DNA of 64,000 nt from Dictyostelium discoideum (Eukaryota). Position numbers and translations under genes: made by a program. Shown piece by piece: positions 25,684 through 60,950 of this stretch. The stretch is taken from the NCBI GenBank assembly GCA_000004695.1, contig CM000150.2, positions 3,552,001 through 3,616,000 on the forward strand, in the 5' to 3' direction. Position 1 is the first letter of the stretch. Each line of letters begins with the position of its first letter. The notes under the pieces are model-generated. The model made no database searches, was not told the DNA's origin, and saw nothing but the letters and a program-made list of their open reading frames with translations.

Positions 25684-25726
25684 TCCACCTCTGAGCCATA
25701 GCTAGCCTAAAGAAGGAAGGGGAAGG

Positions 25727-26116
25727 TGTTAGAGACTCAAAACTAAATTAATTTAAAGTTAGTATGAGCTCAACAACGTAACAAATTCGCGCATCTCCAT
25801 GTAAAAATATTTCATTTAATTTTTATTTTTATTTTTTAATTTTTTATTTTTTCAGTCAAAAAATAAAAAATTAAATTAAAAAAAATTAAATTAAATTAAA
25901 ATTTAAAAAAATAATAAAAATTCTGATTTTTCGGTTTAGTTGGAATAACGCCCTTACTTTTAATTATCTCTTTTATGTATGTTTACTTTTATGATATTAG
26001 TCTTTCACTCTTTCTATCCTTCATATTAAAAAACATTACTTTAAAGATTGGACTGTTTGATAAAAGATTGAACAAATGTGACAATGGATTGAAGATTAGT
26101 GTGAGTGACTTTTACA
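25727..26116 (+). repeat. 3' LTR (390 bp), preceded by PPT
   Basis: Same sequence as the 5' LTR. PPT at 25709-25726. Confidence 0.9.
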
Positions 26117-27768: not shown

Positions 27769-27841
27769 GTGCCTGGATGGCTCAGTAGGCAGAGCGAGCG
27801 GCTGTTAACCGCTAGGTCCATGGTTCGATCCCATGTCTAGG
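27769..27841 (+). tRNA. tRNA-Asn (anticodon GUU)
   Basis: Cloverleaf: acceptor GCCTGGA/TCTAGGC, D-arm GCTCAGTAGGCAGAGC (A box TGGCTCAGTAGG), anticodon loop CTGTTAA, T-arm with B box GGTTCGATCCC, discriminator G. Confidence 0.9.
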
Positions 27842-27845
27842 CGAT

Positions 27846-34234: not shown

Positions 34235-34323
34235 TTATTTTTTTTTATCTTTGATGCACCATTGGCTATTATCTATATCTTTTAACTAATTTTTTTTTAT
34301 TTTTGGAATTAGTTTAAATTAAG

Positions 34324-34355
<32 letters not shown>

Positions 34356-36840
34356 AATAAATTAACATATAATAAGTGCTTACATTTTTTGTATATTCAC
34401 CCAAAGCACCTATAAGAACGTCATTGGAGTCTATTTTTCCTAGAACATTTTGTTTATTTTCGGTTAAGATAATACAATAGATGAGAAGATCTTGACAACC
34501 TGGAAGATATTTAATGATTTTTGAATCTGGATCGTTTGGATAAGCTTTACATATTTCTTTATTTTTTTCATTGTCTGAGAATTCAAATGGTTCTAATTTC
34601 ATTTGGACTTCTTTCAATTGAATGATGTTTTTATTTGTGCTTAATAACAATTTTGTATAGATTTGTTGAACTAATTTGACAGTTTTTAAATCGACATATA
34701 TCCTATCTGGGAAAGGTGAGACTATTGATGGTACGATAACTTCATTGACTATTTCAATAATTGGATGATCAAATTTATCTAATTCAACATCTGTAAATGT
34801 TGATTCAACATAGATATCTTTAAACAATTGGTAAGATTTGGATTTTTCAAAGCTACAAGTGACATCATTATCATCACATAAAATAATTTCCCCTTTGACT
34901 GATGGAAACACATTGAAATCAAAAAACTCTGATTTGTATTTATTTGTTGTAGTTTGTCCTATAAGTTTAGTTAATAATGGAATATAAACATTTTCATATC
35001 CAAAGTTATATTCATTTGCAAATAATTTATCTTCATTGTAAACGATATTAAATGGATTCAAATGATAGTAGTTTTTATCATCTCCATAACCTTTTACCTT
35101 GGTTTCAAAGTCTAGCTTTCTCTTACCTAAAATTGCTCTGAGATCACTTGGATATTTAGTTATTAATACATTTAAATTCAACTTTTGACCTGCAATGCTA
35201 TTTAATCTTAATGATTCTTTTTTAAGATATTGGTTATCCTCTGGGTGTCTAATAATACTAACTCTCCTGTAAAAGTATTCAGAAAGATATTTCATTTTAT
35301 CACTACAAAAAGCACCACCTCCACGTGCCTCTTGCTTTCCTTGCCAATTTAAATCACCAAAGCATATCATTCCACCACCACCACCGCTACCTACTTTATC
35401 TACATCATTGAATTGATAGGACATTTTTGAATGGTCACTTCCTGAATCAGCCCTAATAACTTTTGACCAAGGTGTTTCGAATCTGTAAGAAATATTAATT
35501 GATTCAACTGCTTGAGTAATTGAATTTCTACCTCTTCCTTTCTTTGTTTGAGTATGGACCATTGTTTTAAAATTATTACCATTTGGTAAATCATTTTTAG
35601 AACTATCGATAAAATGCCAAACTATAAAAAATTTGATTCCATCCTTGTGGGCTTCTTTATTTTTTTCACTATACTCTTTATAAAGGTTTATATTTGTTGT
35701 TTGAATGAAGTATCTTCCTTTATCACTCTCATTAATTTTATAATAGTGAACATTTGTTTCTTTAGGTTTTAGATTTGTATCTGATGATGTAATATCTTTG
35801 TTTAGAATTAAATCTGCCTATTTTAAGAATGTTAGTTTGTAATTAATAAACACAAATTTATAATTAAAATTACTTACCAATTGTGACCATTTATTTAAAT
35901 AAATAACTCCATTCCATATATCAGGATCACCATCATTCTTTTTATTATCAAAAATATATTCACTCATTAGACCATCCAATTCTTTAAAAGTTTTGGGAAT
36001 TTTTGTTGCCAAAATTTTACTATCAATTACATCCAAATCAATGACTCCTGTTTTTTTCTTGTCAACCTCTTCTTTGAGGACTTGAGAATACAAAAACATG
36101 GCTGATGATACCCTTTTTGCTCCAGAACCTGGAGAAACTGTATTAATGGTTTGAATATTTAAATTACCATAAATAATATACTTTGGAATAATATGAAGTT
36201 CTTCTTTTGACAAAGTTATACAAATTGAATGCTGCGCGTGTTGACTCTTTAAAGTATTTTCCTTGAAATTAAAAAGAGGTTTATATCCTGTTTCTGGAGA
36301 ATTTGGAACACTGTGAATTACATGAATTCCCCCTTCTTCATTCCAAATGAAAAATCCTTTTGCATGTGCCTTTTTTAACACATGAAATAAATGAAAAAAA
36401 AAGAATTAACAACAACAAATTATAATAAAAAAAAAAAATAAAAATAAAAATTAAAAATTAACACATACACTATTACCACTATTACTGGGTTGATCATTAT
36501 AGGTCAAACTATTATATATAGTTTTACCAGACTTATTTGGATAACTCTGTATGTATGTTGATGTAATTGGGTTTGGCTCATCTGGATTCCTAATATTATA
36601 ATAAGCTAATTCATTAATCACTGGATTCGCCCCATTTAATTCATTATCAGTATAAATAGCACCTTGACTCTGACTCAATTGTTCTAAAACCCACCATTCA
36701 ACATTCTTTTCTCCATCTTTATCTATAAACACCTGACTTTTTGTATAAACATTTTTTGTTGTTATACATTTTGGAGGAACACAATAAATTTGTGATATTA
36801 ATAAAAATAAATATAGAACTATTATATATTTATTTTTCAT
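34235..36840 (-). CDS. Secreted DNase II-like nuclease with long C-terminal extension, paralog 1; exons (complement) 36469..36840, 35878..36368, 34384..35817, 34235..34285
   Basis: Signal peptide MKNKYIIVLYLFLLISQIYC. Both DNase II HxK motifs (KAHAKGFFIWNEEGGIHVIHSVPNSP, and SGSDHSKMSY...GGGAFC close to human DHSKW...GGGTLC). Donors GTATGT, GTAAGT, GTAAGC. A 17-codon terminal micro-exon ends ...QWCIKDKKK*. Confidence 0.75.
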
Positions 36841-37094
36841 TTCTTAGATATATTGTTTTTTTTTTTATTCTAGCATAAAAAAAAAAAAAAAAAAAAAATG
36901 AGACCGTTTTGTTTCAGAAAAAAAAAAAAAAAAATTGATTTTTTTGTGTGAAAAAAAAAAATGAATCTATTTTTGCACTAAAATCTAAATTTGGATTTTT
37001 TTAAAAAAAAAACGAACGAATTTTTTTTTTATTGTTTTCGAGCATCTCTGCAAATCTTTTTTAATTTTTTTTTTACGAAACAGTTCTAAAATGT

Positions 37095-37126
<32 letters not shown>

Positions 37127-37155
37127 CTCAAAAAAAAATTATTAAATCACAGAAT

Positions 37156-39075
37156 ATGTTTTTTTTAAATCATATTTAAATTAATAATATCATTTTTATT
37201 TTTTATTTTATATTGCAATTGTTTCACATTTGGTAGTTACACATTTGATACAAAAAATTGGTCAACAAATTGTGCACTATCATCATGTGTTTTTTATGAA
37301 TTTAATAATAATAATTATTATGATTTAAGTTCTATTGTCCACAATGATCATCAAGGTCCTTACAAAGCAAGTTTTCCTGCCGAACTTCCTGGTGGAATTC
37401 AAACACCTTATACAATGTATTTTAATCCTTGTTTTAATGATAATGTGTGTCCAGGTGGTCTTTCAGTAGGTAAATTCACAAAAAATTCTTAATTCCGTTG
37501 GTTCACTTTCAGAGCCACATTCTATAACATTAAATTCAGAAGGTATTTCTATTGAATATCAATCAGCTCTTTTACCATCAACAACATGTACCTCTAATGG
37601 TAACCGTAGAACTTTGGTTTTATTTATTACTTGTATCCCAACCGAAACATTTAAAATTATTGGTACTTATAACAGAAGAGTATTATGTGAACATACAATT
37701 TATATATCTTCAAAATTAGTTTGTAAAGATAGAGGAATATTATTTAATCAAGGTCTATTTTATGATTTAACACCAATGAAATTGTAAGTTGTTAAATTCT
37801 TTTTTATATTTTTTTTTTATTTCAATTTTTTTTTTTTTTTTGTTTTTAATAAAAAAAAAAAACACCAAACACGAAATTTCAAAATAAAAATAAAAATTAA
37901 AATATCTAACCACTTTTTTTTCAATTTTTTATTTTTTTCTTCCCACAGATTAACAAGCACTTCACACCAAATTACCAACAGTGACCAAACACAAGATATT
38001 CTCTTAATTTATTTGGAAATGTAAATAGATGTGGTACTTTCGGTACATCAACATTAAGTTGTCAATCATGTATTTTAACAGTTGCTAATAAAGCGATCGA
38101 TTATAAACTAGATTCAAGATATGCAACATCACCAAAATCAGTTATGGTAGGATCTCTCAGTCAACCAAGAATTACATTTACAAATGATGGAATAACTATA
38201 ATTTATAGCGCAATAGCAGGCTTCACTGAATGCTCATCAAATGGTAACAAATATTCATCAAAGTATATTTTAATTTGTGATCCATTCACAGAATATTATG
38301 TAGATAAATTTACATTAGAATCACAATGTATTTATCAAATTAAGGTTTATACTAAATACGCATGTCCAACATTACGTTTATTCAAACAAACACAATATTA
38401 TGACCTTTCACCATTGATGTTGTAAGTATTCAATTTATTCTTGTATTTCTTCAAACAGTTATTAATTAATAATAAAATAAATAATAGGGATTCAACAAGA
38501 AATTATACAACAAGTCATATTACAGACGGATATGAGTATAATATTGTATTCAATATTGGTAATAAAGCACAAATGTGTAGCGATGCATTTAATGATTATT
38601 ATTTTGCTTGTCAATATGATCCACGTTATAAAAGTTTTATTCCACTTGCAAAGGCAAGTTTAGGTCAAAGAGTAACATTTGATTTAAATCAAGTTAAATT
38701 CGAATATACTTCACCAATGTCAGGTTGTTTAAGAACTTTTATTATTGTTTTAACTTGTGATGAAAACCAACATTATCAATTAGTTTCAACTTTAGAATCT
38801 CCTGCATGTGTATATACAGTAACAATTAAAACTAAATATGTATGTGAATCAACAATTTATTACAATAGATTCGACTATACATATTATGATATTACTCCAA
38901 TAAAAACGTAAGTTTTAAATTAAATTTGAAATTAAATTTAAATATAAATAATAATAATAATAATATTAATAATCTTTATTGTCAACAACTAAAATATTAA
39001 TTTAATTAGAAAAAAAGATAGTCCAAATAAAATAGATATTGATGTTGGTGGATATCCATATAGAGTAAGTAAATT

Positions 39076-39120
<45 letters not shown>

Positions 39121-42100
39121 AACAAATATTTTTCTAATAGCTTTTTTATGGTATCGGTAATACTGTTGATTATTGCGGAGAACAAGTGGGATCAGTCCCT
39201 GGTGTAGATTATCAAGCTTGTCAATATCTCAGTGGTCTTGTTATTCAAGTCGGTAGTTTAAAAAATACATCAATGATTCTTAATAAGGATGGTATAAGTA
39301 TATATCAAACCTCACCATTCGATTTAACCAAAGTGTGCCAAAATACAAGATATCAAAGAGTAAACATTTTAAATATGGTATGTGATCCAACAGCAACAAA
39401 TGATGTGGTTAGCGCTACTGAGACTGCCAACGATTGGGCATGTGAATATACAATCGAAATTAAAACTAAATATGAATGTTCAATTAATTATGCACCAGTA
39501 TTACCGGTTGTTGGAAATCCATGTTCATACAGTTGTACACCACCAGGTGCTTTAAATCCAAAAGATATAGTTAGTGTACTTTTAAATTTAGGTGTTTGTT
39601 CTCAGAGATTAATAAATATGGTACAGGTGCAATCATTACTTAATATATTTAAAGATACTTGGGTTTCAAATCACAATGGGTATGATGATTGGATGGGTGG
39701 ACAACTTTATTCACTATTATTAACAGGTAAACCACAGTCAACAATTTCACCATATGTTATTTCAATTACACATGATAATTTAAGTACATATGGTACCAAT
39801 GGGTTAAGTAAAGCAAAAAATTCAATCAATGATTTTCTTACTATTACAAATGATCTTCTTGAAATTTCAAATCGTGCAGCCAGTTCAACCGTTACCAAAT
39901 ATACATATTCAGATGGAGCAATTACATAAACTTTTATCAACATCAACTGGAGGTCTTGCAATTATTAAATACAAAAATTTGCTATGCTACTATTCAATAG
40001 TCCCAAATTTACAAACTTTAATTATTGGGAGTTATTTGCTTTCTTGCCCATATTATTCACTACCAACTATACAGTGCACAGTTTAACACCATCAATAGGG
40101 AAAGTTGGAGATACTATCACAATTAATGGTCAAAATTTAGATACAGATATATATGATGTTTATTTCAACATTATTGATGACAACAGTAAAATTAAAGCAA
40201 CAATAACATCAAGAACCGTAAGTTTTGTAAAAGTAATTGTTCCAAATGGTTTTGGTTATGCATTAGTCTACACTCAAAATATACTTAATCCAACTACCTC
40301 TGATAAACTTTCATTTTCATATCCATCACCAGCGATTGTCAAAGTAATTAGTCAACCATTTAGTACAGATATCATCAATAGATTCTTTGTTATTGGTCAA
40401 AACCATCGTTCTTTAATAACCAATATTGTTATTAATCCATACATCGATAATATTGAAAAAGAAGCAATTTATTGTGAAATTGTTGTCGGTAAACAAGCGT
40501 CAAAGACTATATATCCAAGTGATTTAGATGAAAATCCAACAAATTATAATTTATATTATTATCCCCCAGCAGTTGTTGACATATCAGAAGTTTCAACTGA
40601 TGGTGGTGAAGTTATAATAAAAGGTACAAATTTTATTCCAGCCTCGCTTAAAGATCAAATTAATAATCAACCAATAATCGGTTCACCACATTCAGTAGAG
40701 TTTAATAATGTTTTATCTTCATCATGGACATGGATTGATTCAACACATGTAGAAGCCATCGTACAAAAAGGTATTGGTACAATCTCTACAATTGTAAATG
40801 TTGGTGGTCAAAGATCTGATTTAAATCCAATTCCTGTAAATTTTTACAAAAGACCTGAACTAGATAATAAAAAATATGAAAACTTTGCAAATAGTGATAT
40901 TTTAATAACTGGTTCTAATTTTGTGCCAGTTGGTTTTTCAGCAGGTTCATCAAGTTCTGTCAAAATTGGAGGTATTCCCTGTAACTCTGTAACATGGGTA
41001 GATTCAAAATCTGTTATTTGTAATGTGCCAATTGGAACTGGTGATAATTTAAATATCATCAAAAAACCGAATTAAATGATTATTTCTCATATTTAGGGCA
41101 ATGCGATTTCCTCTGTAGCGATTTATCAAATTTAGTAAGTTTTTAAACATTTTAATTACAGAAAAAAAAAAAAAAACTAAAAAATACTAATTTATTATCA
41201 TTTTTATCTCAAAGGAATTAGCAAAAGTTATTAGAGAGAATAAAAAAGATTTAAAGAGTACTCTTTTATTAACAGGTGTATGTTTAGAACAAATCGAGCA
41301 ATATAATTTCACAGATATTAATGATGAAATTGAATCAAGTTGGATTGAAAACTCAATTATTAATGATTGGACAAGTGGTAAATTCTATAATTATTTTAAA
41401 TCATCAGAATCATACTCAACAGTTAAAACACTTGCAAAATATATTACTCCAAAGAATCCATGTATTTATGATAATAAAAGAGTAAAGAATTCATTAGATT
41501 ACCATTTTGAAATCAATTCAGATATTTTCCATTTAATTGAACTTTCAATTTCATCAAAAATCAGTTATCCAGATTCACCATATGAAACTTATTTCTATGA
41601 ATCATCAAGCAACCCAGAGTATGGTCTTTCAATTATTACATTTGATTCAGCAATTTGTAGCTTTACAGAATCAACTATTCAAGACTATCAAAGTGGAAAA
41701 GAATTACAATCATGTTCAATCATTCCAATTATAAATCAAGTAATTAATCCAACAACAACACTTCAAGCACCATATCAATATTCACTTACAATTATTGGTA
41801 GATTATTTGATAGTTCAACTAGAATATTTTTATCAGGTTATGAATGTCCAATCATTGGTAATATCGCTACTAATCAAAATGATTATATTCAAACTCTTAG
41901 TTGTTCAGTACCACCAGAAATCGAATCATACTCGCCCTCTCAAATTAGTTTTTACAATGATTATAGTGAAAATAATATATAGAATATGAAGATGGATCTG
42001 ATGAAATTGTTGTTAAATTTAATAATGAACCAACAGCTATCATTGAAAACACAGAAACATACATTAAAATTAAAACCCTTAGTGGTGATGAATTTAATGT

Positions 42101-43487
42101 ACCAATTGCTGTAGAATTAAACGGTCAAATAAGTAATACAGATACTTCATTCGTTTACTCAAATCCAATAATTGAAAGTGTAACACCATCATCAAGTAGC
42201 TCAAAATCAAATACTAATATCATCATTAAAGGACAAAATCTTGGATATTTAACAAACACTCCCAAAATTACAATTGGAAGTAGTAATTGTTTAAATATCA
42301 AAACTATATCTCCAAATGAAATTCATCGTTATGAAATCAAGCGCAGGCACTAAACAATTAACATTAACCTATGAAAGTTATCAACCAACCTATTCACAAT
42401 TCACTCACAAAAACGATGATGACAGTGATAGCCACGATGATGATGATGATGACCATAAAAACAATAATGGACCAAAAAACACCATATTAAGTATTCTTGG
42501 AGGTATAATTGGAGCAGCAGCATCAGCGGCCGTAAGTGGATTTATAACAAGCATTTTCGGTGGTGCGACATCAGTAGCTACAGCAGCAGCAACAGCAACA
42601 GCTATTGCCGGTGCAATTACCGAAGGTGTTGCAGTGGCCTTTACAGGGGTATCAGTAATAGCAGCAACAGCAGGTGGTATTGTTATTACTTCAATTGTAA
42701 CAGCAACAGCCATCCTTATTTCAGGTGGAAGTACACAATCACCAAACCCAACGCCAACCGATAACTATTGGGTAAGATGTATGGTCGATTATTCAAGATT
42801 AACTTTACAAGTCGATAATCTTTACGGTCAAGATATAGTATGGATTGATGGTAATGGAATTTCATCAATTTTCAAAGAATCATTCTCTTGTAAACCTGAC
42901 CTTATTAACGATGGTATGATATGCACTCAACAACATCAAAATGGAACAAATTCAACAACCACATTTGGTAATTCAACATTAATTTGTCATATTGACCCAA
43001 CAAAATCATGTGAAATTTCACCACCATTCATCATACCATCCGATCCAATTGAAGATGATGAATATTCAAATATTTTAGAATGTCAATATAATCTCATTGA
43101 AAATTCATTATCAACACACTCTAATAATAGTCCATTAAGATGTTATAATAATGAAACTGAAAATTACTTCACTATGAATACTACACTTTCATGCTCAAAA
43201 GATGAATCATTAAGTCAAGATAAATATACGATTTCTTGTTTATCAGATACAGATGATACCCAAATCTTTTTCTATAAGAACTCAATTACATGCATTACAG
43301 ATTATCCATACTATAAATGTACAATAAAAATTAGTTAACGACTGGAACTAATGCTGAATGTCCAAAAAATGAAAAAGAACTTCATTATGATCTTTCAACT
43401 TCTCTAACATGCACAGATTATATCACACTTAAAAACTCCACTTATTCAATTTCATATTCAAATTACATTTGCATTAAAACAAAATAA
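37156..43487 (+). pseudogene. Degenerate, internally deleted copy of the giant MRH/IPT-repeat gene (paralog of 47415..57732)
   Basis: Colinear with 47.4-57.7 kb at roughly 85-95% nt identity. Defects: corrupted start and signal peptide (ATGTTTTTTTTAAATCAT...TAA); 17 nt deletion in exon 1; 1 nt deletion in exon 2; 11 nt deletion after ...SDGAIT; missing roughly 480 nt IPT unit; loss of roughly 3.9 kb of IPT repeats (joins at 41990); 22 nt and roughly 100 nt deletions near the 3' end. Only fragment ORFs remain. Confidence 0.75.
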
Positions 43488-43512
43488 AAACAATTAAAAA
43501 ATTTTAAAAAAC

Positions 43513-43592
43513 AAAATGATATAATAATTTAATGAAATAATTTAATTACTATTTTTACTATTTTTATTTTCGAAAAACTGTAATTAAATTAT
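43513..43592. repeat. Perfect 23 bp inverted repeat (ATTTAATGAAATAATTTAATTAC / GTAATTAAATTATTTCATTAAAT) with 31 bp spacer
   Basis: Read directly. Lies between the convergent 3' ends of the IPT pseudogene (+) and DNase paralog 2 (-). Confidence 0.8.
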
Positions 43593-43721
43593 TTCATTAA
43601 ATCATTATGTCACACCACCCAAAATTCAATTCTGAAAACTTTTTTTTTTATTTAATTACCCTTAATAAAAAATTAAATGTGAAAATAAATGTTATATTTA
43701 TTTTAGTATTGTTTTTTTTTT

Positions 43722-45990
43722 TTATTTCTTAGTGCACCATTTGGTTTTATCTAATTTTGAAAACTAAAAAAAAAAAAAAAATTTATTTTTGGAATTAGTT
43801 AAATTTAAAAAAAAATAAATTTTTGGGATAGTTAAATTTAAAAAAAAATTTAAATTAAAATATAATTAATACTTACATCTTTGGTATATTCACCCAAAAC
43901 TTTTGTAAATTCCTCAATGGAATTGATGTTTTGTAGATCACCATGTTTATTTTCAGTTAAGAGAATACAATAGATAAGATGATCTTGGCAATCTGGATGA
44001 TAATTAATGATTTTTGAGTCTGTATCACTTGGATAAGCTTTACATATTTTTTTATTAATTTCATTGTAATCCTTATCATCATGACCTTCTTCGCTATCAC
44101 TTTGATCGCCTTCGATTTTATTTGGGAATTTAAATGGTTCTAAATCATCTTTGATTTTAACTTCTTTCAATTGAATGATGTTTTCATTTTTAATAAATTT
44201 CAATTTTTTATAAAGTTCTTTTACTAAATCAATATTTTTTAAATCGATATATATCTTATCTGGGAAAGGTGCGAGTATTGATGTTGGTTCGATAACGGTA
44301 TTTTGTGTTATAGCAGTTATCGTTTCTTTACCATCTTTATTTTTTGATGAGGTAACTGTTAATGTTGATTCAACATAGATATCTTTAAACAATTGGTAAG
44401 ATTTGGATTTTTCAAAGCTACAAGTGACATCATCATTATCATCACATAAAATAATTTCCCCATTGATTGATGGAAACACATTGAAATCGAATAACTCTGA
44501 TTTGTATTCATTTGTAGTTTGATCCTTAAGTTGAGTTAATAATGGAATGTAAACATTGTCATAACCATAGTTATATTCATTTGAAAATAATTTATCTTCA
44601 TCTTTTTCATTATTGTAAACGATAATAAATGGATTCAAATGATAGTATTTTTCATCATCTCCATAACCTTTAACCTTGGTTTCAAAGTCTAACTTTCTGT
44701 TACCTAAAATTTTATTTAGATCCTTTGGATATTTAGCTATTAATCCGTTTAAATTCAACTTTTGACCTGCAATGCTATTTAATCTTAATGATTCTTTTTT
44801 AAGATATTGATTATTCTCTGGGTGTCTAATTATACCAACTCTTCTATAAAAGTATTCAGAAAGATATTTCATTTTATCACTGCAAAAAGCACCACCTCCA
44901 CGTGACTCTTGCTTTCCTTGCCAATTTAAATCACCAAAGCAAATAGTCCCACCACCGCCACCGCTATCTACTTTATCTATATTATTGAATTGATAAGAAA
45001 TTTTTGAATGGTCACTTCCTGAATCAGCACTAATAACTTTTGACCAAGGTGTTTCGAATCTGTAAGAAAGATAAATTGATTCAACTGCTTGAGAAATTGC
45101 ATTTTCACCTTTTGTAATCTTTGTTTGAGTATGGACCATTGTTTTAAAATTATTACCATTTTTAAAATTATCTATATAATGCCAAATTATAAAAAATTTA
45201 ATTTTTTCCTTGTGAGTTTCTTCAATTTTTTCATTATACTTTTTATAAAGGTTTTTATTTGTTGTTTGAATGAAGTAATCCCCTTTATTTTTACTCTCAT
45301 AAATTTTATTATAGTGAACATTTGTTTCTTTAGGTTTTAGAGTTAAATCTGATGATGTAATATCTTCGTTTAGAATTAATTTTGCCTATTTTAAGAATGT
45401 AAGTATGATGATTTATTAACACAAATTTATAATTAAAATTACTTACCAATTGTGACCATTTATTTAAATAAATAATTCCATTCCATATATCAGGATCACC
45501 ATCATTCTTTTTTTTAACCAAAATATAATCACTCATTAGACCATCCAATTTTTTAAAAGTTTTGGGAATTTCTTTTGCTAAATTTTCAATTACATCCAAA
45601 TTAATGACTCCTGGGCTTATCTTTTCAACCTCTGTATGGAGATTTTCGGAATAAAGATTGGCTGATGATACCTTTTTAGCCTTTTTACCAAGTCCTGTTG
45701 AAACTGTATTAATGGTTTGAATATTTAAATTACTATAAATAATATACTTTGGAATAATATGAAGTTCTTCTTTTGACAAAGTTATACAAATTGAATGTTG
45801 AGCATGTTGATTATTTAAAGTATCTTTGTCGTAATTAAAAAGAGGTTCATATCCTGTTTCTGGAGATTTTGGAACACTGTGAATTACATGAATTCCCCCT
45901 TCTTCATTCCAAATGAAAAATCCTTTTGCATGTGCCTTTTTTAAATAAATAAATTAAAAAAAAAAAATATGTTAACAAATAATGATAACC

Positions 45991-46021
<31 letters not shown>

Positions 46022-46413
46022 AAATAATAAACACAAACACTATCGGAACCACCACTGATCTGATCATTATAAGTCAAACTATTATATATAATTTTTTTAG
46101 ATTCATTTGGTAAACTCTGTTTGTATGTTGATGTAATAGGGTTTGGTTCTTTTGGATCTCTAATATTATAATTTGCAATTTCATTTATCTCTGAACTTCC
46201 TCCTTTTAATGTGTTATCAGTATAAATAGAACCTTTACTGTGACCTAATTGTTCTAAAAACCACCATTCGACATTCTTTTCTATTGTAACCCCATCCCCA
46301 AATACTTGACCATCCTTGTAAATATTTTTTGTTGTTATACATTTTGGAGGAACACAATAAATATGTGATATTAATACAAATAAATATAGAAAAATAATAT
46401 ATTTATTTCTCAT
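43722..46413 (-). CDS. Secreted DNase II-like nuclease with long C-terminal extension, paralog 2; exons (complement) 46039..46413, 45447..45935, 43877..45385, 43722..43763
   Basis: Same architecture as paralog 1. Signal peptide MRNKYIIFLYLFVLISHIYC. AHAKGFFIWNEEGGIHVIHSVP and DSGSDHSKISY...GGGAFC motifs. GTTTGT, GTAAGT, GTAAGT donors. Terminal micro-exon FSKLDKTKWCTKK*. Confidence 0.75.
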
Positions 46414-46483
46414 TTTCTTAAGTCTAATGTTATAATGTTTCAATTTTTTAATGGTATAAAAAAAAATTGGGTGTGTTTTTGCG

Positions 46484-46514: not shown

Positions 46515-47560
46515 GCTTTGTTGTCAACAAAGAAAAAAACCTAAAATTGGATCATTTAAAATAAAATAAAAAAACGAACGAAAATATTTTTTTTTAATCG
46601 TTTTTAGATGATTTTCCCACTTCTTTGATTATTGAAAATCTTTTAAATATTTTAGATTTTTTTTTTTATTTTTTTCGACCCATTATTTAATAAAAAAAAA
46701 AAATTATAAAAATTACCCCCACAAACCGTTTAGTTTTTTTTTTTTTTTCACAAAGCCTGGTTTTTATTTTTTTTGACACTTTTTAGCTTTGCATCTTTAT
46801 CGCTTTAAATACGTAAAATACAACATTTTTTTTAAAAAAAAAAAAAAAGTATGGTTAAAAAAAAAAAAAAATCATACTGAAATTAAAAAAAAAATGGTAA
46901 AATTTAAAATAGTTATATCATTTTTATTATTTATTTTATATTTTAATTGTTTCACATTTGGTAGTCATGTGTTTTTTATATTAATACAAATAAATATAAA
47001 AAAATAATATATTTATTTCTCATTTAAATTTTTTAATGGTAAAAAAATTGGGTGTTTTTTGTGAAAAAAAAAAAAAAATAGCCTTTTTGTGAAAAAAAAA
47101 GAAAAAAAAAAATCTAAAATTGGATCATTGAAAAAATAAAATAAAAAACGAACGAAAATTTTTTTTTAATCGTTTTTAGATGATTTTTCCACTCCTTTTA
47201 TTATTGAATCTTTTTGAACATTTTTCTACCGCTTGGTTTTTTTTTTTTTTACAAAGCTTTGCTAGTTTTTATTTTTTTTTTACACTTTTTAGCTTTGCAT
47301 CTTTAAAACTTTAAAATACGTTTTGGAAAATACTATATTTTTTTTTTTCAATCAACCACACTCTTTTTTTTTTTTTTTTTAAAAAAAATAATCATATTGA
47401 AATTAAAAAAAAAAATGGTAAAATTTAAAATAGTTGTATCATTTTTATTATTTATTTTATATTGTAATTGTTTCACATTTGGTAGTTACACATTTGATAC
47501 AAAAAATTGGTCAACAAATGGTACACTATCATCATGTGTTTTTTATGATTTTGTAAATAA
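46395..47560. repeat. Tandem duplication (about 590 bp unit) of the bidirectional promoter region plus the 5' ends of both flanking genes
   Basis: 46850-47040 holds a second copy of the giant-gene start (ATGGTAAAATTTAAAATAGTTATATCATTTTTATTATTTATTTTATATTTTAATTGTTTCACATTTGGTAGTCA) fused head-to-head to a second copy of the DNase 5' end (reverse of ATGAGAAATAAATATATTATTTTT...). The intergenic block (AAAATTGGGTGT...CGAACGAAAAT...AATCGTTTTTAGATGATTTT) occurs twice. Junction ORF 46789..47007 is a by-product. Confidence 0.7.
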
Positions 47561-49250
47561 CGATTATTATGATTTAAGAGCTATTGTCATACCTGATCAT
47601 CAAGGTGCTTACAGAGCAAGTTTCACAGCTGAACTTTCTGGTGGAATTCAAACACCATATACAATATATTTTAATCCTTGTTTTAATGATCATATGTGTC
47701 CAGGTGGTCTTTCAGTAGGTTGTACTTTTATTGTACAAAATTCACAAAGAGTTCTTAATTCTGTTGGTTTACTTTCAGAATCTCATTTTGTTACATTTAG
47801 AACAGATGGTATTACTATTAAATATCAATCAGCTCTTTTACCATCAACAACATGTGCCTCTAATGGTAACCGTAGAACTATGATTTTAGTTATCACTTGT
47901 GATCCAAATGAACCATTTAAAGTTACAAGTACTTATAACAGAAGAGTGTTATGTGAACATACAATTTATATCGCTTCAAAATTAGTATGCAAAAATAGAG
48001 GAGTATTATTTAATCAAGGTCTATTTTATGATTTAACACCAATGAAATTGTAAGTTATTTAATTCTTTTTCATATTTATTTTTTTTTATTTTTTTTTTTT
48101 TAAAATAATTATCCAAAAATAAAAAAAAAAAAAAAAGGATCAAACACGAAATTTCAAAATAAAAAAATCTAATCTTTTTTCACTTTTTTTTATTTTTTTT
48201 TAATTTTTTTATTTTTATTTTTTTTTCCCACAGATTAACAAGCACTTCACACCAAATCACCAATGATGACCAAACAAAAGATATTCTCTTTAATTTATTC
48301 GGAAATGTAAATAGATGTGGTACTTTCGGTACATCAACATTAAGTTATCAATCATGTATTTTAACAGTTGCTAATAAAGCGATCGATTATAAACTAGATT
48401 CAAGATATGCAACATCACCAAAATCAGTTATGGTAGGATCTCTCAGTCAACCAAGAACAATTACATTTACAAATGATGGAATAACTATAATTTATAGTTC
48501 AACAACTGGTTTCACAGAATGCTCATCAAATGGTAACAAATATTCATCAAAGTATATTTTAATTTGTGATCCATTCACAGAATATTATGTAGATAAATTT
48601 ACATTAGAATCACAATGTATTTATCAAATTAAGGTTTATACTAAATACGCATGTCCAACATTACGTTTATTCAAAGAATCACAATATTATGACCTTTCAC
48701 CATTGATGTTGTAAGTATTCAATTTAATTAAAAAACCTTTTTAATGTTTTATTCTTGCACTTCTAACAATTATTAATAATAAAATAAATAATAGGGATTC
48801 AACAAGAAATTATACAACAGGTCATATTACAGGCGGATATGAATATAATATTGTATTCAATATTGGTAATAAAGCACAAATGTGTAGCGATGCATTTAAT
48901 GATTATTATTTTGCTTGTCAATATGACCCACGTTCTAAAAGTTTTATTCCACTTGCAAAGGCAAGTTTAGGTCAAAGAGTAACATTTGATTTAAATCAAG
49001 TTAAATTCGAATATACTTCACCAACAACAACTAGTTGCCCATTAAATTCCAATAAAAGAACTTTTATTATTGTTTTAAATTGTGATGAAAACCAACATTA
49101 TCAATTAGTTTCAACTTTAGAATCTCCTGTATGTGTATATACAGTAACAATTAAAACTAAATATGTATGTGAATCAACAATTTATTACAATAGAATTAAT
49201 ACTACCTTTTATGATATTACTCCAATAAAAACGTAAGTTTTAAATTAAAT

Positions 49251-49336
<86 letters not shown>

Positions 49337-52300
49337 CTTTATTAACAACCAAAACTATTAATTTTAATTAGAACGAAAGATAGTCCAAAAACTGTAGATA
49401 TTGTTGTTGGTGGATATCCATATAAAGTAAGGGATAATTTTTAAAATTTTTTTTTTTTTTGTTTTTTTTTTTTTAAACAAACATCAAACGTGTCAAACTG
49501 AAATTTAAATATTTTATGTATATATTTAAAAATATTTACTAACTTTACTTTATTAATTTTTTATAACAGCTTTATTACAGTATAGGTAATACTGTTAATT
49601 ATTGTGCAAATCAAGTGGAGTCAGTTCCAGGGGTTGATTATCAAGCTTGTCAATATCTCAGCGGTCTTGTTATTCAAGTCGGTAGTTTAAAAAATACATC
49701 AATGTATCTAAGTAATAATGGTATAAATATATATCATACTACACCATTTGATTTAACCAGAGTATGCCAAAATACAAGATATCAAAGAGTGAACTCTTTA
49801 AATATGGTATGTGATACAACAGCAATAAACGTTGTGGTTAGCGCGACTGAGACTGCCGATGATTGGGCATGTATATATACAATCGAAATTAAAACCAAAT
49901 ATGCATGTCCAATTAATTATGCACCAGTATTGCCAGCTGTTGGAAATCCATGTTTATACAGTTGTACACCACCAGGTGCTTTAAATACAAAAGATATAGT
50001 TAGTGTACTTTTAAATTTGGGCGTTTGTTTCTCAGAGATTAATAAATATGGTACAGGTGCACAATCATTACTTGGTATATTCAACAATACTTGGGTTTTA
50101 AACCACAATGGATATGATGATTGGATGGGTGGACAACTTTATTCACTATTATTAACAGGTAAACCACAAACATCGATTTCACCATATGTTATTTCAATTA
50201 CACATGATAATTTATGTACATATGGTACCAATGGGTTAAGTAAAGCAAAAAATTCAATCAATGATTTTCTTACTATTACAAATGATCTTCTTGAAATTTC
50301 AAATCGTGCAGCCAGTTCAACCGTTACCAAATATACATATTCAGATGGAGCAATAACATTATCAACACATAAACTTTTATCAACATCAACTGGAGGTCTT
50401 GCAATTATTAAATACAAAAATTTGCTATGCTACTATTCAATAGTTTCAAATTTACAAACTTTAGTTATTTCGAATTATTTGCTTTCATGTCCATATTATT
50501 CACCAACCATTACATTGTACAGTTTAACACCACCAACAGGGAAAATTGGAGATACTATCACAATTAATGGCCAAAATTTAGATACAAATAGATATGATGT
50601 TTATTTCAACATAATTGACGACAACAGTAAAGTCAAAGCAACAATAACATCAAGAACCGTAAATTCTGTAAAAGTAATTGTTCCAAATGGTTTTGGTAAT
50701 GCATTAGTCTACACTCAAAATATACTTAATCCAACTACCTCTGATAAACTTTCATTTTCATATCCATCACCAGCGATTGTCAAAGTAATTAGTCAACCAT
50801 TTAGTACAGATATCATCAATAGATTCTTTGTTATTGGTCAAAACCATCGTTCTTTAATAACCAATATCACCATTTATCCATACATCGATAATATTGAAAA
50901 AGAAGCAATTTATTGTGAAATTGAAAAGTATTGTCCAAGTTCATCAAAAATTCCATCAATTCCAGAATCAGCAGTAGGTCATCCATGTATTAATTCAACA
51001 GTTTACTCTGAGAATTCCCAGTTTTTCGATTATTCCAAGTATGATGTTTTTGTTTGTATCAAATCATCATTAGGTGTTGGAAGTGGTATCATTAAATTCC
51101 CATCACAAACATTTACATTTGCATACTCTTATAAAGCACCTCTCTTATATTATACACAACCTGGCATTCGTATTCCAACCGATGGTGGTAGTTTTCAATT
51201 GAGTGGTAAAAACTTTCCACCAACACAAGAAATCATTGATCTCGGTTTAAACACATCTGTAATCATTTGGAATAATGATAATTTTGTTACATTCAAAGGA
51301 ACAAATCTTACAAGCACCAATATCAATTGGAAGAGTTCTAAATCGATTTTATGTGTTGCACCACCAGGTTTCGGTGGACCATTCATCGTTACGGTAACTG
51401 TCGGTAAACAAGCGTCAAAAACTATATATCCAAGTGATTTAAATGAAAATCCAATAGATTATTATTTATATTATTCTCCACCAACTTTGCTCGACATATT
51501 AGCAGTTCCAACTGATGGTGGGGAAACTATAATAAAAGGTACAAATTTTATTCCAGTCTCGCTTGCAGATCAAATTAATAATCAATCATTAATTGGTTCA
51601 CCAAATTCAGTCACGTTTAATAATGTTTTATCTTCATCATGGAAATGGATTAACTCAACACATGTAAAAGCCATCGTACAAAAAGGTATTGGAGCAATCC
51701 TTACAATTGTAAATGTTGGAAGCCAAAGTACTGAAACGAGTCCATATCCCGTAATTTTTTATAAACAACCTGAATTAGATAATAAAAAATATGAAAACTT
51801 TGCAAATAGTAATATTTTAATAACTGGTTCTAATTTTGTACCAGTTGGTGTTTCAGCAGGTTCATCAAGTTCTGTCAAAATTGGAGGTATTCCTTGTAAC
51901 TCTGTAACATGGGTAGATTCAAAATCTGTTATTTGTAATGTACCAATTGGAACTGGTGATAATTTAAATATCCAAGTAACAGTTGGAGGTCAACAAACCG
52001 AATTAAATGATTATTTCTCATATTTAGGGCAATGCGATTTCCTCTGTAGCGATTTATCAAATTTAGTAAGTTTTTAAACATTTTAATTACAGAAAAAAAA
52101 AAAAAAACTAAAAAATACTAATTTTTTACATTATAATCTCAAAGGAATTAGAAAAAGTTATTAGAGAAAATAAAAAAGATTTAAAGAGTACTCTTTTATT
52201 AACAGGTGTATGTTTAGAACAAATCGAGCAATATAATCTCACATATATTAAAAATAAAATTGAATCAAGTTGGATTGGAAGTTCAATTATTAATGATTGG

Positions 52301-55300
52301 ACAAGTGGTAAATTCTATAATTATTTCAAATCATCAGAATCATACTCAACAGTTAAAACACTTGCAAAATATATTACTCCAAAGAATCCATGTATTTATG
52401 ATAATAAAAGAGTAAAGAATTCATTAGATTACCTTTTCGAAATCAATTCAGATATTTTCCATTTAATTGAACTTTCAATTTCATCAAAAATCAGTTATCC
52501 AGATTCACCATATGAAACTTATTTCTATGAATCATCAAGCAACCCAGAGTATGGTCTTTCAATTATTACATTTGATTCAGCAATTTGTAGCTTTACAGAA
52601 TCAACTATTCAAGACTACCAAAGTGGAAAAGTATTACAATCATGTTCAATCATTCCAATTATAAATCAAGTAATTAATCCAACAACAACACTTCAAGCAC
52701 CATATCAATATTCACTTACAATTATTGGTAGATTATTTGATAGTTCAACTAGAATATTTTTATCAGGTTATGAATGTCCAATCATTGGTAATATTATTAC
52801 AAATCAAAATGATTATATTCAAACTCTTAGTTGTTCAGTACCATCAGAAATCAAATCATACTCGGCCTCTCCAATTAGTTTTTACAATGGTTATAGTGAA
52901 AATAATATATATAATTTCTTGTTGGATTTTAAAAAATCATTCTTTTTTATATATCCAATTTCAACAGTAACTCAAATTCAATACCCATCAAGTGGTCCAA
53001 TTCAAATGAATTCTGAAATTAAAGTAATTGGTTTTAATTTCTTCCCATATGGTATTACAAATCCAAGCATTCAAGTTTTTATTGATGATCTTGAATTAAC
53101 AGGTACTATCTTTGGATTAACAAGCATAAATGGAGTTGATTCATTTTCATTTATTGCTTCTGGTTTAGGTTCTTTAAAGTATGTAAAAAAAAAAAAAAAA
53201 TTAAAAAAAAAATTAAATTATTAATATTTAAAATATATTTTTTTCAAAGTTACATTCAATTATTTTATAGTGATAGTTTACCAATGATTATAAACGATGA
53301 TATTAATTTAGAATTTTCATTTGAAAGACCAATTGTTAATAGTATATTACCAACAAATGGAGATTACAATACAAAGGTTACAATTAATGGTAATAATTTT
53401 AGAAAAGGTCAATCAGTAAAAATTGGAGACATATTAGTAAATGATATTGAATTCATTTCAAATCAAAAGATTATTGTTTCAGCACCATTTGGATTTATTA
53501 ATGGACTTGTAGTTGTTTATTCAGATGATCAATACAGTTTAGAAGAAATATCATTTAGTTATCCTTCACCAATTATAGACCAAGTCATTCTTTCAAATTA
53601 TGAATCAAAATTAAACACAACAGGTACAAATTATTTCACAGTAATAGGTAGAGGTTTAGGTACATACATTGCAGAACAAGTCGATATTATTATTAACCAA
53701 GAGTTTTATGCAAGTTGCGAATTCGATTTCTGTGAAAGTTTAGAAATTATTGAAGATATAGATATAAAAGATCAAGGAATTTGTCAATATTTAAAATATA
53801 AAAATTATCAATATATCGATGAAAACTTTGATATATTAAATTGTATTTTAGCTGATTCGATTGGTAAAGATAAATCAATCAGTATCAAAATTTCAGAATT
53901 CCAAAACCAAACTTTCACCTACTCTTATTATGAACCATGGATTGAAAAATTAACACAAAACTCTTCATCAGCAACAACTGATGGTGGTGAAGTTATCGTT
54001 ATAAATGGTTACAACTTTTTACCATTCGAAAATTTAAGTCCATACTATGAAAACAATGAAACTATTGCACAATGGTTAAATCAATCAGAAATATTAATTG
54101 GTGAAAGCTATCTTTGTCAATCAATTAATTGGACCAATTCCTATGAATTAAATTGTACAATCCCACCGGGAATTGGTGTTAATCATACAATCATTGTAAA
54201 AGTAGGCCTTCAATCATCAAATCATACTGATTATTTGTATTCTTACGATCCACCAAAACTTGATACAATCAATAATTCCACCAAAAATGAGACACATTAC
54301 TATTCTTCAACAGATGGTAACAATGAAATTATAATAACAGGTAATAACTTTATTCCAAAAGAGTTATCAGATCATTACAACCAGAATGAAAATAAAACTA
54401 TAAATTCAATACTATTAGGTAAACAATATTGTAATGAAACTATTTGGATTAATTCAACAATAGTTAAATGTAAACCATTAGCAGGTATTGGGTCAAATTA
54501 CAAAATAAACATTAAAGTTGGTAATCAAAATTCAAATGAAACCATTTACTTCTCATATGAGAAGCCAATTTTAGATTTAAAGAATTACACAGGTTCAACA
54601 AATGGTAATACTGAAATTACAATAACAGGTATCAACTTTATTCCAAAAGAATTAGCAGATAATAATAATTTCAATCAATCAGAGAACTATATAATGATTG
54701 GTGATAATAAATGTAATGAAACTATTTGGATCAATTCAACAACAGTTAAATGTAAACCAATATCAGGTACTGGTACCAATCATAGAGTTATCATAACAGT
54801 TGGTAATCAAAACTCAAATGAAACGGTCTACTTTTCATATGATAAACCAATTTTAGATATTAAAAACTATAGTAGTCCAACTGATGGCAATACTGAAATC
54901 ACAATTACAGGTGAAAACTTTATTGAAAATTATAATCAAGAAAAACATAATGAAAATGATAATTTCGTTAGAATCGGTGAAAATAAATGTAATGAAACAA
55001 AGTGGATAAATTCGACAACAATTAAATGTAAATTAATTCAAGGTATTGGTTTAGATTATAAAATAGTTGTAACAGTCGCCAATCAACAATCAAATGAAAA
55101 TGTTTTCTTTTCATATGAAAAACCAATGATTGATAGTAAAACACTATTAGCATCAACCAGTGGTAGTGAAACTATTAAAATTACAGGTACCAATTTCATT
55201 CCATCAACTTTAGTAGAACATTACAACAAAGAAGAAAATAAAGATAACTCAATAAATTCAGTTACTATCAATAACGAGTTTTGTAATGATATTACATGGA

Positions 55301-57732
55301 TTAACTCAACAGAACTAACATGTAAACCATTAGCAGGAGTTGGAACTAATCATACTATATTCATTTTGGTTGGAACTCAAAAATCAAATCAAGTAAAATC
55401 ATTCTCATATAAACCTCCAAAGATTGAAGAGTTTAAATACTACACAGCACCAACACATTCCAATAAAATTATTACTATAACTGGTGAAAACTTTATTCCA
55501 ATCGAATTATTATCAAAAGACAACAGCAATAGTTCAGTACTCATTGATAATATAAAATGTGAAGAAATCAAATGGATTGATTCTACAAAAGTTTCATGTC
55601 AAGTTCCAGTAGGTCAAGGTAAAGATTTATCGATTAAAGTTAAAATTGAAAATCAAGAAACTGAAGAAAATCAACAATTTTCATATGATAAACCATTTAT
55701 TCAATCAATCAATCCAAATAAAGGAAGATGTAATCAAGAAGTATTAATTACAATTCAAGGTGATAGTTTTGGAAAGAGTGATCAACTAATTAAAATTGGT
55801 AATAACGAATGTCAAGATATTCAATTCTATCCAAATCATACATTTACATGTAAAGTTCCAATCGTGGAGAATTCAATTAAATCCATTGTTTTATTAAATG
55901 TTGGAAATCAAGATTCAAACGATAACATTACATATAAATACTATGGACCACCAGAAATTAAAAGTATTGGTTTACCATCATATCTTTCATTCAAAGGTGA
56001 TGATTTAATAACAATCATTGGTAATAACTTTATAGAATATGATGATGGATCTGATGAAATTGTTGTTAAATTTAATAATGAACCAACAGCTATCATTGAA
56101 AAAACAGAAACATCTATTAAAATTAAAACTCTTAGTGGTGATGAATTTAATTTACCAATTGCTGTAGAATTAAATGGTCAAATAAGTAATATCGATACTT
56201 CATTCGTTTACTCAAATCCAATAATTGAAAGTGTAACACCATCATCAAGTAGCTCAAAATCAAATACTCATATCACCATTAAAGGACATAATCTTGGATA
56301 TTCAACAAACACTCCCAAAATTACAATTGGAAGTAGTAATTGTTTAAATATCAATACTATATCTCCAAATGAAGTTCGTTGTATAGTGTTGAAATCAAGC
56401 GCAGGCACTAAACAATTAACATTAACCTATGAAAGTTATCAACCAACCTATTCACAATTCACTCACAAAAACGATGATGACAGTGATAGCCACGATGATG
56501 ATGATGATAAAGACAATAATGGACCAAAAGATACCATAATAAGTATTATCGGAAGTGCAATTGGAGCAGCAGTATCAGCAGCCATAAGTGGACTAATAAC
56601 AAGCATTTTCATTGGTGGAACATCAGTAGCCACAGCAGCAGCAACAACAACAGCAACAGGTACCGCGATTGCAACAGCAACTACAGCGTCAACAGCAACA
56701 GCTATTGCCAGTGCAACGACCGAAGGTGTTGCAGTAGTCTTTACAAGGGTATCAGTAATAGCAGCAACAGCAGGTGGTGTTGTTATTACTGCAATTGTAA
56801 CAGCAACAGTCATCCTTATTTCAGGTGGAAGTACACCATCACCAACTCCAACTATAACTCCAACTATTTCACCAACTCCAACACCAACCGATAACTATTG
56901 GGTAAGATGTATGGTCGATTATTCAAGATTAACTTTACAAGTCGATAATCTTTACGGTCAAGATATAGTATGTATTGATGGTAATGGAATTTCATCAATT
57001 TTCAACGAATCATTCTCTTGTAAACCTGATCTTATTAACGATAGTATGATATGCACTCAACAACATCAAGATGGAACAAATTCAACAACCACATTTGGTA
57101 ATTCAACATTAATTTGTCATATTGACTCAACAAAATCATGTGAAATTTCACCACCATTCATTATACCATCCGATCCAATTGAAGATGATGAATATTCAAA
57201 TATTTTAGAATGTCAATATAATCTCATTGAAAATTCATTATCAACACACTCTAATAATAGTCCATTAAGATGTTATAATAATGAAACTGAAAATTACTTC
57301 ACTATGAATACTACACTTTCATGCTCAAAAGATGAATCATTAAGTCAAGATAACAATACGATTTCTTGTTTAGCAGATACAGATGATACTCAAATCTTTT
57401 TCTTTAAGAACTCAATTACATGCATTACAGATTATCCATACTATAAATGTACAATGAAATCTGAACCATCACAAGATGATAACATAATTCCAGAACCAAC
57501 ATTACCACCAACTCCATCAATTGATGATGATTCCACATGTATTTATGATTCAGCCAATCCATATTCAATAGATCTCCAACCAACGATTGGAACTAATGTC
57601 AAATGTCCAACAAATGAAAAAGAACTTCATTATGATCTTTCAACTTATCTAACATGCACAGATAATACCACCCATAAAAACTCCACTTATTCAGTTTCAT
57701 ATTCAACTTATGTTTGCATTAAAACAAAATAA
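47415..57732 (+). CDS. Giant secreted/transmembrane protein (about 3200 aa): signal peptide, 4 MRH-like domains, about 20 IPT/TIG repeats, long Ala/Thr/Gly hydrophobic segment, Cys-rich C-terminal domain. Exons 47415..48049, 48234..48710, 48795..49232, 49372..49426, 49570..52065, 52145..53178, 53271..57732
   Basis: Signal peptide MVKFKIVVSFLLFILYCNCFTFG. MRH-like units end ...RRTMILVITCDPNE...VLCEHTIYIASKLVC, ...KYILICDPF...QCIYQIKVYTKYACP, ...RTFIIVLNCDENQ...CVYTVTIKTKYVCES, ...VNSLNMVCDTT...WACIYTIEIKTKYACP. Many IPT/TIG units of form P.I..I...S..GGT.ITI.G.NFIP......I..G...C....W.NST.I.C..P. Introns (GTAAGT donors) keep phase. Exon 52145..53178 is open for 1034 nt but has no ATG/GTG/TTG, so it is absent from the ORF track. 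Ends TAA at 57730-57732. Confidence 0.7.
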
Positions 57733-60888: not shown

Positions 60889-60950
60889 GTTATTATTTTT
60901 GTTTTATTTATTTTAATATAAAAAAAAAAAATTATTTATATATAAAAAAA

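Follow-up and report, generated by a model that had tools for sequence, protein, structure and literature searches.

A probable unprocessed pseudogene of a giant MRH-TIG gene, eroded mainly by deletions, in a tandem array of Dictyostelium discoideum

Background

A 64,000-nucleotide (nt) stretch of the Dictyostelium discoideum genome (GCA_000004695.1, contig CM000150.2, positions 3,552,001 to 3,616,000 of the forward strand; hereafter the window, whose numbering is used throughout) holds two copies of a giant gene, copy A at 37188-43487 and copy B at 47415-57732. B is intact and A is broken, and the question that the locus raises is whether A is a dead gene and, if so, when and by what kind of mutation it died. 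An initial annotation of this DNA had described A as a decaying paralogue of the giant gene, and this description was upheld by a collinear alignment with disabling insertions and deletions (indels). As far as can be judged from sequence, A is very probably an unprocessed pseudogene that arose by duplication of a giant gene for a secreted or membrane protein with MRH and TIG domains; it lies in a birth-and-death array and most likely makes no functional protein.

Structure of the parent gene and of copy A

The parent gene was modeled as follows, and the NCBI annotation likewise gives B as one gene with a 3,198-amino acid (aa) product and a start identical to that of the model here.

47415-57732 (+): intact paralogue B; seven exons, six GT-AG introns and an open reading frame (ORF) of 3,198 codons (9,597 coding nt)
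47415-48049, 48234-48710, 48795-49232, 49372-49426, 49570-52065, 52145-53178 and 53271-57732 (+): exons of B
48050-48233, 48711-48794, 49233-49371, 49427-49569, 52066-52144 and 53179-53270 (+): introns of B, GT-AG

The B protein consists of a signal peptide (an N-terminal hydrophobic leader), four MRH-like Cys repeats of about 160 aa, and TIG domains, and on its C-terminal side a long hydrophobic Ala/Thr/Ile-rich stretch precedes a Cys-rich C-terminal domain. At least 13 TIG domains were detectable with Pfam (E = 6e-110 and 1e-25), and these repeats are similar to one another (54306-54870 and 54594-55147 match at 76%). In the Pfam profile search, repeat 3 matched PF13015 (PRKCSH_1) above the cut-off (27.7 bits vs 23, E = 2.5e-6), while repeats 1, 2, and 4 had no significant match to the MRH-type profile. 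A protein search with the last exon of B returned three distant matches of 21-25% identity, with no Dictyostelium TIG protein among them.

BLASTN comparison of A with B produced collinear blocks of 86-97% identity (37174-43541 vs 47423-57782; E = 0 for the main blocks). Of the 9.6 kb of coding sequence in B, A retains about 5.8 kb and lacks about 3.8 kb (about 40%); the homologue of the B stop codon is at 43485-43487. The parts of A are listed below, with the indels relative to B that each carries.

37188-43487 (+): pseudogene A, comprising the homology to B coding sequence and the retained introns, as defined by global alignment, tblastn frame tiling, and the lesion table
37156-37187 (+): 5' leader remnant; its ATG, at 37156, lies out of frame and opens a 7-codon ORF
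37188-37783 (+): pseudo-exon 1, first MRH-like repeat; carries -17
37784-37948 (+): retained intron 1, GTAAGT..CAG, 15% guanine plus cytosine (GC)
37949-38421 (+): pseudo-exon 2; carries -1 and -3
38422-38487 (+): retained intron 2
38488-38907 (+): pseudo-exon 3; carries -18
38908-39009 (+): retained intron 3
39010-39064 (+): micro-exon 4
39065-39140 (+): retained intron 4
39141-41134 (+): pseudo-exon 5, fourth MRH-like repeat and TIG domains; carries -1/-2, -11, +3/-1, -474, and -16
41135-41214 (+): retained intron 5
41215-41977 (+): pseudo-exon 6, 5' part only, cut off at the left edge of the 3,123-nt deletion
41978-43487 (+): pseudo-exon 7, 3' part only; last TIG domains, Ala/Thr-rich hydrophobic region, and Cys-rich C-terminal domain

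Introns 1 to 5 of A are in positions homologous to those of B and have GTAAGT donors and AG acceptors. Intron 6 is missing solely because the 3.1-kb deletion spans it, and neither another intron loss nor a poly-A tail was found. Because the parental introns and the flanking DNA are retained, A is not a retrocopy; it has the features of an unprocessed pseudogene, namely an intact paralogous parent, kept introns, and co-duplicated flanking genes (the DNase II-like D genes, described below).

Disabling lesions

Lesions were identified from the A/B global alignment read on the exon map of B. Nine disabling lesions were found in A: the loss of the ATG and eight internal frameshift clusters, the latter all within exons. 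Seven more indel clusters are in frame (-474, the compensated -1/-2, -3, -18, -48, -30, and +6). The internal lesions are as follows.

A 37471/37472 = B 47721-47737: -17, frameshift, pseudo-exon 1
A 38003/38004 = B 48289: -1, frameshift, pseudo-exon 2
A 38169/38170: -3, in frame, pseudo-exon 2
A 38729/38730: -18, in frame, pseudo-exon 3
A 39598 and 39629: compensated -1/-2 pair, pseudo-exon 5
A 39922/39923 = B 50355-50365: -11, frameshift, pseudo-exon 5
A 40059-40070: +3/-1, frameshift, pseudo-exon 5
A 40482/40483 = B 50924-51397: -474, in frame, pseudo-exon 5
A 41057/41058 = B 51973-51988: -16, frameshift, pseudo-exon 5
A 41977/41978 = B 52908-56030: -3,123, frameshift, with 4-nt TATA microhomology
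A 42324/42325: -5, frameshift, pseudo-exon 7
A 42449-42454: +6, in frame, pseudo-exon 7, Asp/Asn-rich tract
A 42589/42590: -48, in frame, pseudo-exon 7
A 42744-42748: -30, in frame, pseudo-exon 7
A 43329-43337: -115 (107+8), frameshift, pseudo-exon 7

The start lesion is a 27-nt deletion (B 47410-47436, junction 37187/37188) that removed 5 leader nt and the first 22 coding nt, and with them the ATG and codons 1-7 of B; no in-frame start was found for A. The initial annotation had considered the start region rewritten and the signal peptide lost. The ATG is indeed gone, but A still codes, startless, for the hydrophobic part of the signal peptide. Pairwise alignment of A with 47415-57732 recovered the lesions named there, with corrections to their sizes. 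The 17-nt, 1-nt, and 11-nt deletions are all present and all shift the frame. No internal 22-nt deletion appears in the alignment; what was read as one may be the loss of the first 22 coding nt, or else the deletion of 16 nt at B 51973-51988. The missing IPT unit of about 480 nt corresponds to the in-frame deletion of 474 nt, which is not a clean unit, its junction lying at non-equivalent TIG positions. Both junction motifs reported for a clean 3.9-kb deletion are exact (left 41968/52898, right 41982/56035), but the size is 3,123 nt. The alignment added -16, -5, -115, +3/-1, the -1/-2 pair, -3, -18, -48, -30, and +6 to that list.

With the 3,123-nt deletion, exon 6 lost 271 nt and exon 7 lost 2,760 nt, intron 6 disappeared, and the frame shifted because the exonic loss amounts to 3,031 nt. 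Microhomology at the deletion junctions of A amounts to 0-5 nt, and the junctions fall at non-equivalent points of the repeats; those of the 474-nt and 3,123-nt deletions cut through TIG domains. Unequal crossing-over between TIG repeats was considered as the origin of these two deletions and was rejected, their junctions being non-equivalent and sharing only 0-4 nt. A ciliate code, with TGA as the sole stop, was considered for the broken frames and was also rejected: B is open in the standard code, the sequence (16-36% GC) has a codon usage typical of Dictyostelium (CAA, AAA, GGT, TCA, AGA), and the introns are likewise typical of it (short, AT-rich, GTAAGT..AG).

It is scarcely credible that the true locus is intact and that the lesions are artefacts of assembly or sequencing, for example through the collapse of TIG repeats or indel errors in long reads. 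The 76% similarity among TIG repeats would permit a collapse, and the window does differ from a public assembly in homopolymer lengths. However, from 33692 to 56413 the window was aligned to GCA_054883475.1 (JBTAPE010000039.1) with 0 mismatches over 22.7 kb, the only five differences were homopolymer lengths in non-coding DNA, and the lesions of A are identical in both. Homopolymer errors do not account for deletions of 5, 11, 16, 17, 115, 474, and 3,123 nt, the junctions have the short microhomology and non-equivalent repeat positions given above, and B, D1, D2, and D3 are clean in the same window.

Relatives and direction of change

Relatives of the giants were located through the loci around homologues of the D genes, which yielded seven full-length copies (named here are Bp, C, X, Y, Z, and W). 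Bp is in a second array on the same contig, 1.1 Mb away, and C belongs to the array of A and B and starts shortly after the window ends; X and Y are from the sister species D. cf. discoideum (GCA_054859205.1), and Z and W are from two other D. discoideum strains. In all 16 lesion intervals, each relative covering the interval (Bp, X, Y, Z, W, C) shows the state of B, and the 27 nt lost at the start of A are present in Bp, Y, Z, W, and C, as well as in Ap, the partner of Bp in the second array. Bp, X, Y, and W have zero frameshifts, zero stops, and intact splice sites. Because the relatives share the state of B, the lesions are losses on A, and insertions in B in place of deletions in A were ruled out by these outgroups. 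At the level of the sequences compared, 15 of the 16 exonic A/B indel differences are thus shown to be deletions on the lineage of A. The exception, +6, is ambiguous; the Asp/Asn-rich tract in which it occurs is variable in length, with +3 in X and Y and +12 in Z and W.

The second array provides a parallel case.

JBTAPE010000039.1, 2.43-2.45 Mb (reverse-complement coordinates 4255-9822 and 13078-22636): second array, Ap and Bp

Bp (GCA_054883475.1 JBTAPE010000039.1, 2.43-2.45 Mb) is an intact giant 98% identical to B. Ap has decayed independently, with seven frameshifting deletions (-263, -22, -2, -130, -509, -3248, -1) and two nonsense codons; a separate listing of its own deletions gives 263, 22, 130, 509, 3340, and 645 nt. 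The left breakpoint of the 263-nt deletion in Ap (B 47722) is within 1 nt of that of the 17-nt deletion in A (B 47721), beside a TGTACA palindrome, and this near-shared breakpoint could be either a deletion hotspot or a shared ancestral lesion.

Giant Z (GCA_054859385.1, L005) contains five small frameshifting indel clusters in the B-equivalent interval 48675-49194 (exons 2-3), which sum to +12, and it is annotated as two genes (380 and 2,696 aa). It could be a copy starting to decay, a very divergent segment, or the product of long-read errors.

Splicing and the public two-gene annotation

The frameshifts of A could in principle coincide with unannotated introns that restore the frame, and this was tested and found not to be so: each of them falls in DNA that is exon in B and in the seven other full-length copies. 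The verified introns of A and B number 11; their donors are GTAAG or GTATG without exception, and their GC content is 6-15%. With intron-like defined as a GTAAG or GTATG donor and a GC content of at most 15%, no frame-restoring intron-like GT-AG interval was found at any of the eight frameshifts.

The NCBI annotation of GCA_054883475.1 nonetheless places two protein-coding genes in A, with products of 713 aa (36898-39929) and 1,032 aa (39984-43338). Models with those spans and lengths need extra introns of 44-67 nt and 18-28% GC, with GTGATA, GTTTTT, or GTAGTA donors. Reconstruction of the 713-aa model gave no unique answer, too many GT-AG combinations being compatible with it. That A lives on as one or two such shorter genes, with new introns skipping the lesions, is very unlikely. 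The existence of gene calls with these spans and product lengths speaks for it, as do the survival of ATG-initiated ORFs of 363 and 340 aa and, as detailed below, the absence of nonsense codons from the ancestral frame and the constraint on the branch leading to A. Against it, the required introns are unlike any verified intron of the family in donor and GC content, and would be excised from sequence that is coding in eight relatives. The ATG of the 5' model is only 58 nt from the start codon of D1, and its first exon is at most 51 nt; neither product has a signal peptide, while the parent is a secreted or membrane protein, and the TIG domains are cut through at the 474-nt and 3,123-nt junctions. 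We infer from these sequence features that the two annotated genes are gene-prediction artefacts.

Age of the duplication and gene conversion

The initial annotation had proposed a recent duplication followed by rapid degeneration, and this part of it was not supported by the comparison with relatives. The 3' Cys-rich domain, put there at about 95% identity, is indeed highly similar, and the figure is higher still, 97.6% over 582 nt (42748-43329). That A is a recent duplicate of B that degenerated very fast is nevertheless highly improbable. This block and several tracts of 97-99% identity would fit it, but other parts of A and B differ by 10-15%, and the co-duplicated D2 and D3 have diverged by 0.155 synonymous substitutions per synonymous site (dS). 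Mismatches between A and B range from 4 to 44 per 300 aligned columns, forming a mosaic of 1-15% divergence, and A-B dS is 0.097 overall and 0.035 to 0.18 by segment (chi-square heterogeneity P = 6e-4).

The relationships among copies also differ by segment. In exon 5c and exon 7a the nearest copy to A is X (4.6% and 4.3%, respectively), and the nearest to B is Y; in these unhomogenised segments A and B are 6.1-9.0% apart. All copies from D. discoideum group with one another in exon 6 and exon 7b, where A and B differ by 3.1% and 2.4%, respectively. Divergence in the 3' domain is 2.4% for A-B, 5.5% for A-X, and 4.3% for B-X. X, which is the positional counterpart of A in D. cf. discoideum, is intact, as is Y. 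Because the pairing of A with X and of B with Y is an orthology pattern, the duplication predates the species split; the segment comparisons have thus shown that the A/B duplication is old, earlier than the divergence of D. discoideum from D. cf. discoideum. Interlocus gene conversion is indicated because the groupings are incongruent between segments, and the near-identical 3' domain of A and B is, judging from these groupings, a gene-conversion tract. X and Y are themselves 0.6-1.1% apart over exons 2-5a and 4.6-7.8% apart in exon 5c and exon 7a, which indicates recent concerted evolution of the 5' half in D. cf. discoideum.

Timing and mode of decay

Across 1,915 aligned codons with 352 substitutions, A has 0 nonsense codons. 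In simulation, 9-10 would be expected if half of the substitutions had been neutral on A, and the absence was significant (P < 0.01) even at a quarter. Substitutions private to A comprised 62 nonsynonymous and 27 synonymous changes, giving a ratio of nonsynonymous to synonymous rates (omega) of about 0.6; for A-B, omega was 0.57, and for intact neighbours 0.52-0.91. Omega was therefore rejected as a pseudogene test, being uninformative where intact neighbours are themselves at 0.5-0.9. Because A has zero nonsense codons and an omega of about 0.6, it was apparently constrained for most of its history and died recently. Several of its lesions lie within the youngest conversion tracts or at their margins.

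A mutation accumulation study of D. discoideum reported rates of 4.93e-11 for indels and 2.47e-11 for substitutions, with deletions 4.5 times as frequent as insertions (PMC7466956). About 5.5% of random substitutions in the A/B coding sequence make a stop. Because of these mutation rates and this stop fraction, frameshifting indels are expected to outnumber nonsense substitutions by an order of magnitude, the rates predicting roughly 20 or more frameshift indels per nonsense substitution. The observed ratio of disabling lesions to nonsense codons is 9:0 in A, and that of frameshifting deletions to nonsense codons is 7:2 in Ap. Deletion-led decay fits the mutation spectrum measured in D. discoideum.

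The history suggested by these data would be as follows. A and B would have duplicated before D. cf. discoideum split off and would then have exchanged tracts by interlocus gene conversion. A would have been freed from selection recently, after the species split and the last conversion tracts, and would since have been eroded almost wholly by deletions of 1 nt to 3.1 kb, which took the start and broke the frame eight times, with no nonsense substitution having yet arisen.

Several points weigh against a pseudogene. The public annotation models A as two protein-coding genes, and A has kept consensus splice sites along with a frame free of nonsense codons. Omega for the substitutions private to A is about 0.6, not 1, and most of the divergence arose under constraint; because of this, calling A dead depends on the indels and the lost ATG alone. 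Fragments of A may be transcribed or translated. Finally, the dating of the lesions is through the sister species alone, as no close allele of A was found in the two other D. discoideum strains examined, where the giants next to the leftmost D gene (Z and W) are a different mosaic, 4.5-12% from A.

The array and its surroundings

Self-BLAST of the window revealed a tandem array in which giant TIG genes on the forward strand alternate with DNase II-like genes on the reverse strand, in the order D1, pseudogene A, D2, B, D3; the next giant, C, begins a short way outside the window. The most recent duplicated unit consists of a giant and its downstream D gene.

37174-46420: duplicated unit 1 (A and D2), paralogous to unit 2 (B and D3) at 47423-60895, by self-BLAST
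34235-36840 (-): D1, intact secreted DNase II-like gene, head-to-head with A, 790 aa here
43722-46413 (-): D2, intact DNase II-like gene between A and B, 100% identical to ACTFIT_007548
58290-60888 (-): D3, intact DNase II-like gene downstream of B

All three D genes encode secreted DNase II-like proteins of 785-799 aa with two conserved introns and both HxK motifs kept; the public model of D1 has 782 aa and is equal to AX4 DDB_G0270642. They provided an internal control, all being intact with indel differences of 3n only. About 350 aa at the C-terminus of each protein form an extension that matches nothing in Pfam. The DNase II-like genes evolve fast (omega 0.52-0.91), and in every case seen, each is head-to-head with a giant TIG gene. 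A protein search with D2 showed that the family has many copies across Dictyostelium genomes. A literature search on the neighbouring DDB_G identifiers found nothing relevant.

Other features were observed in the window. A relic of about 105-120 nt at 46861-46980, 520 bp upstream of the real start of B, copies the promoter-proximal region, ATG, and signal-peptide codons of B (MVKFKIVISFLLFILYFNCFTFGS); it is 96% identical to 47381-47486 and then breaks off. Between D3 and giant C, a single-exon gene at 61522-63579 (+) encodes an Asn/Lys-rich protein of 684 aa that is not similar to the giants. A complete Ty3/gypsy-type long terminal repeat (LTR) retrotransposon of 6,997 bp is at 19120-26116, with identical 390-bp LTRs (19120-19509 and 25727-26116), a gag-like ORF, and a pol ORF (reverse transcriptase, RNase H, integrase). 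A non-LTR reverse-transcriptase ORF (15457-18891, reverse strand) and a tRNA-Asn(GTT) gene (27770-27844) adjoin it. In two other D. discoideum strains (L005 and L007), only about 1.5 kb separates the GH31 gene from the 254-aa gene, and these insertions are therefore strain-specific. A local tandem duplication of about 0.9 kb (6117-7024 vs 7618-8488, 86% identity) spans the small ORFs at 6496-7074 and 7885-8529.

Comparison with known systems

Unprocessed pseudogenes are known from birth-and-death arrays such as the major histocompatibility complex (MHC), olfactory-receptor, and immunoglobulin clusters. A resembles these pseudogenes in keeping its introns and flanks, in its frameshifts and start loss, in having intact paralogues adjoining it, and in gene conversion. 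It differs from them in being disabled by deletions only, in the size of its parent (3,198 aa), and in the repeat unit, which is a giant head-to-head with a DNase II-like gene. In itself A is a routine pseudogene, and its practical value is the correction of the public two-gene model.

The deletion-biased decay of non-functional DNA has been termed "DNA loss" in the sense of Petrov. A and Ap match both this process and the D. discoideum spectrum, in which indels to substitutions are about 2 and deletions to insertions about 4.5. The mutation-accumulation study scored indels of 1-30 bp, however, and the 115-, 474-, and 3,123-nt deletions of A are outside that range (PMC7466956). Together with its replicate 1.1 Mb away, A illustrates gene death in D. 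discoideum by deletion and not by stop codons, as mutation-accumulation data predict.

The closest parallel is from the same organism. In strain AX4 the tgr family of transmembrane genes with IPT/TIG (E-set) repeats comprises 38 genes and 26 pseudogenes (PMC12745789; bioRxiv 10.1101/2025.10.22.684067), and assignment to it is based on homology to the subfamilies tgrA-tgrT (PMC12745789). Like the tgr genes, B has a signal peptide, TIG repeats, and a hydrophobic membrane-type segment, of which A keeps parts, startless. Also shared are the clusters of genes and pseudogenes, head-to-head pairs, large deletions, recombination or conversion between paralogues, and differences between strains. The birth-and-death analogy drawn in the initial annotation held up in this respect, as the second array on the contig includes a copy that decayed on its own, and strains differ in what their arrays contain. 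In contrast to the tgr family, the partner of every giant is a DNase II-like gene, whereas clusters of the tgrB/C type, though not all tgr genes, typically pair tgr with tgr; B also bears four MRH-like domains at its N-terminus and a Cys-rich domain at its C-terminus. The analogy holds for architecture and dynamics, on which the giants would be comparable to tgr genes; an allorecognition role is not implied. We know of no such role for the giants.

The arrays number several per genome, vary in content between strains, contain mosaic copies, and have omega values of 0.5-0.9. These traits raise the idea, unlikely as it is, that the giant/DNase II-like arrays are a second tgr-like hypervariable locus in which A and Ap act as conversion donors to intact giants; if so, dead copies would persist as reservoirs, giving new surface-protein variants by gene conversion. 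On the same view, the giants and the secreted DNase II-like genes paired with them might work together. The array shares the dynamics of the tgr allorecognition clusters and may merit attention in studies of how recognition genes evolve in social amoebae.

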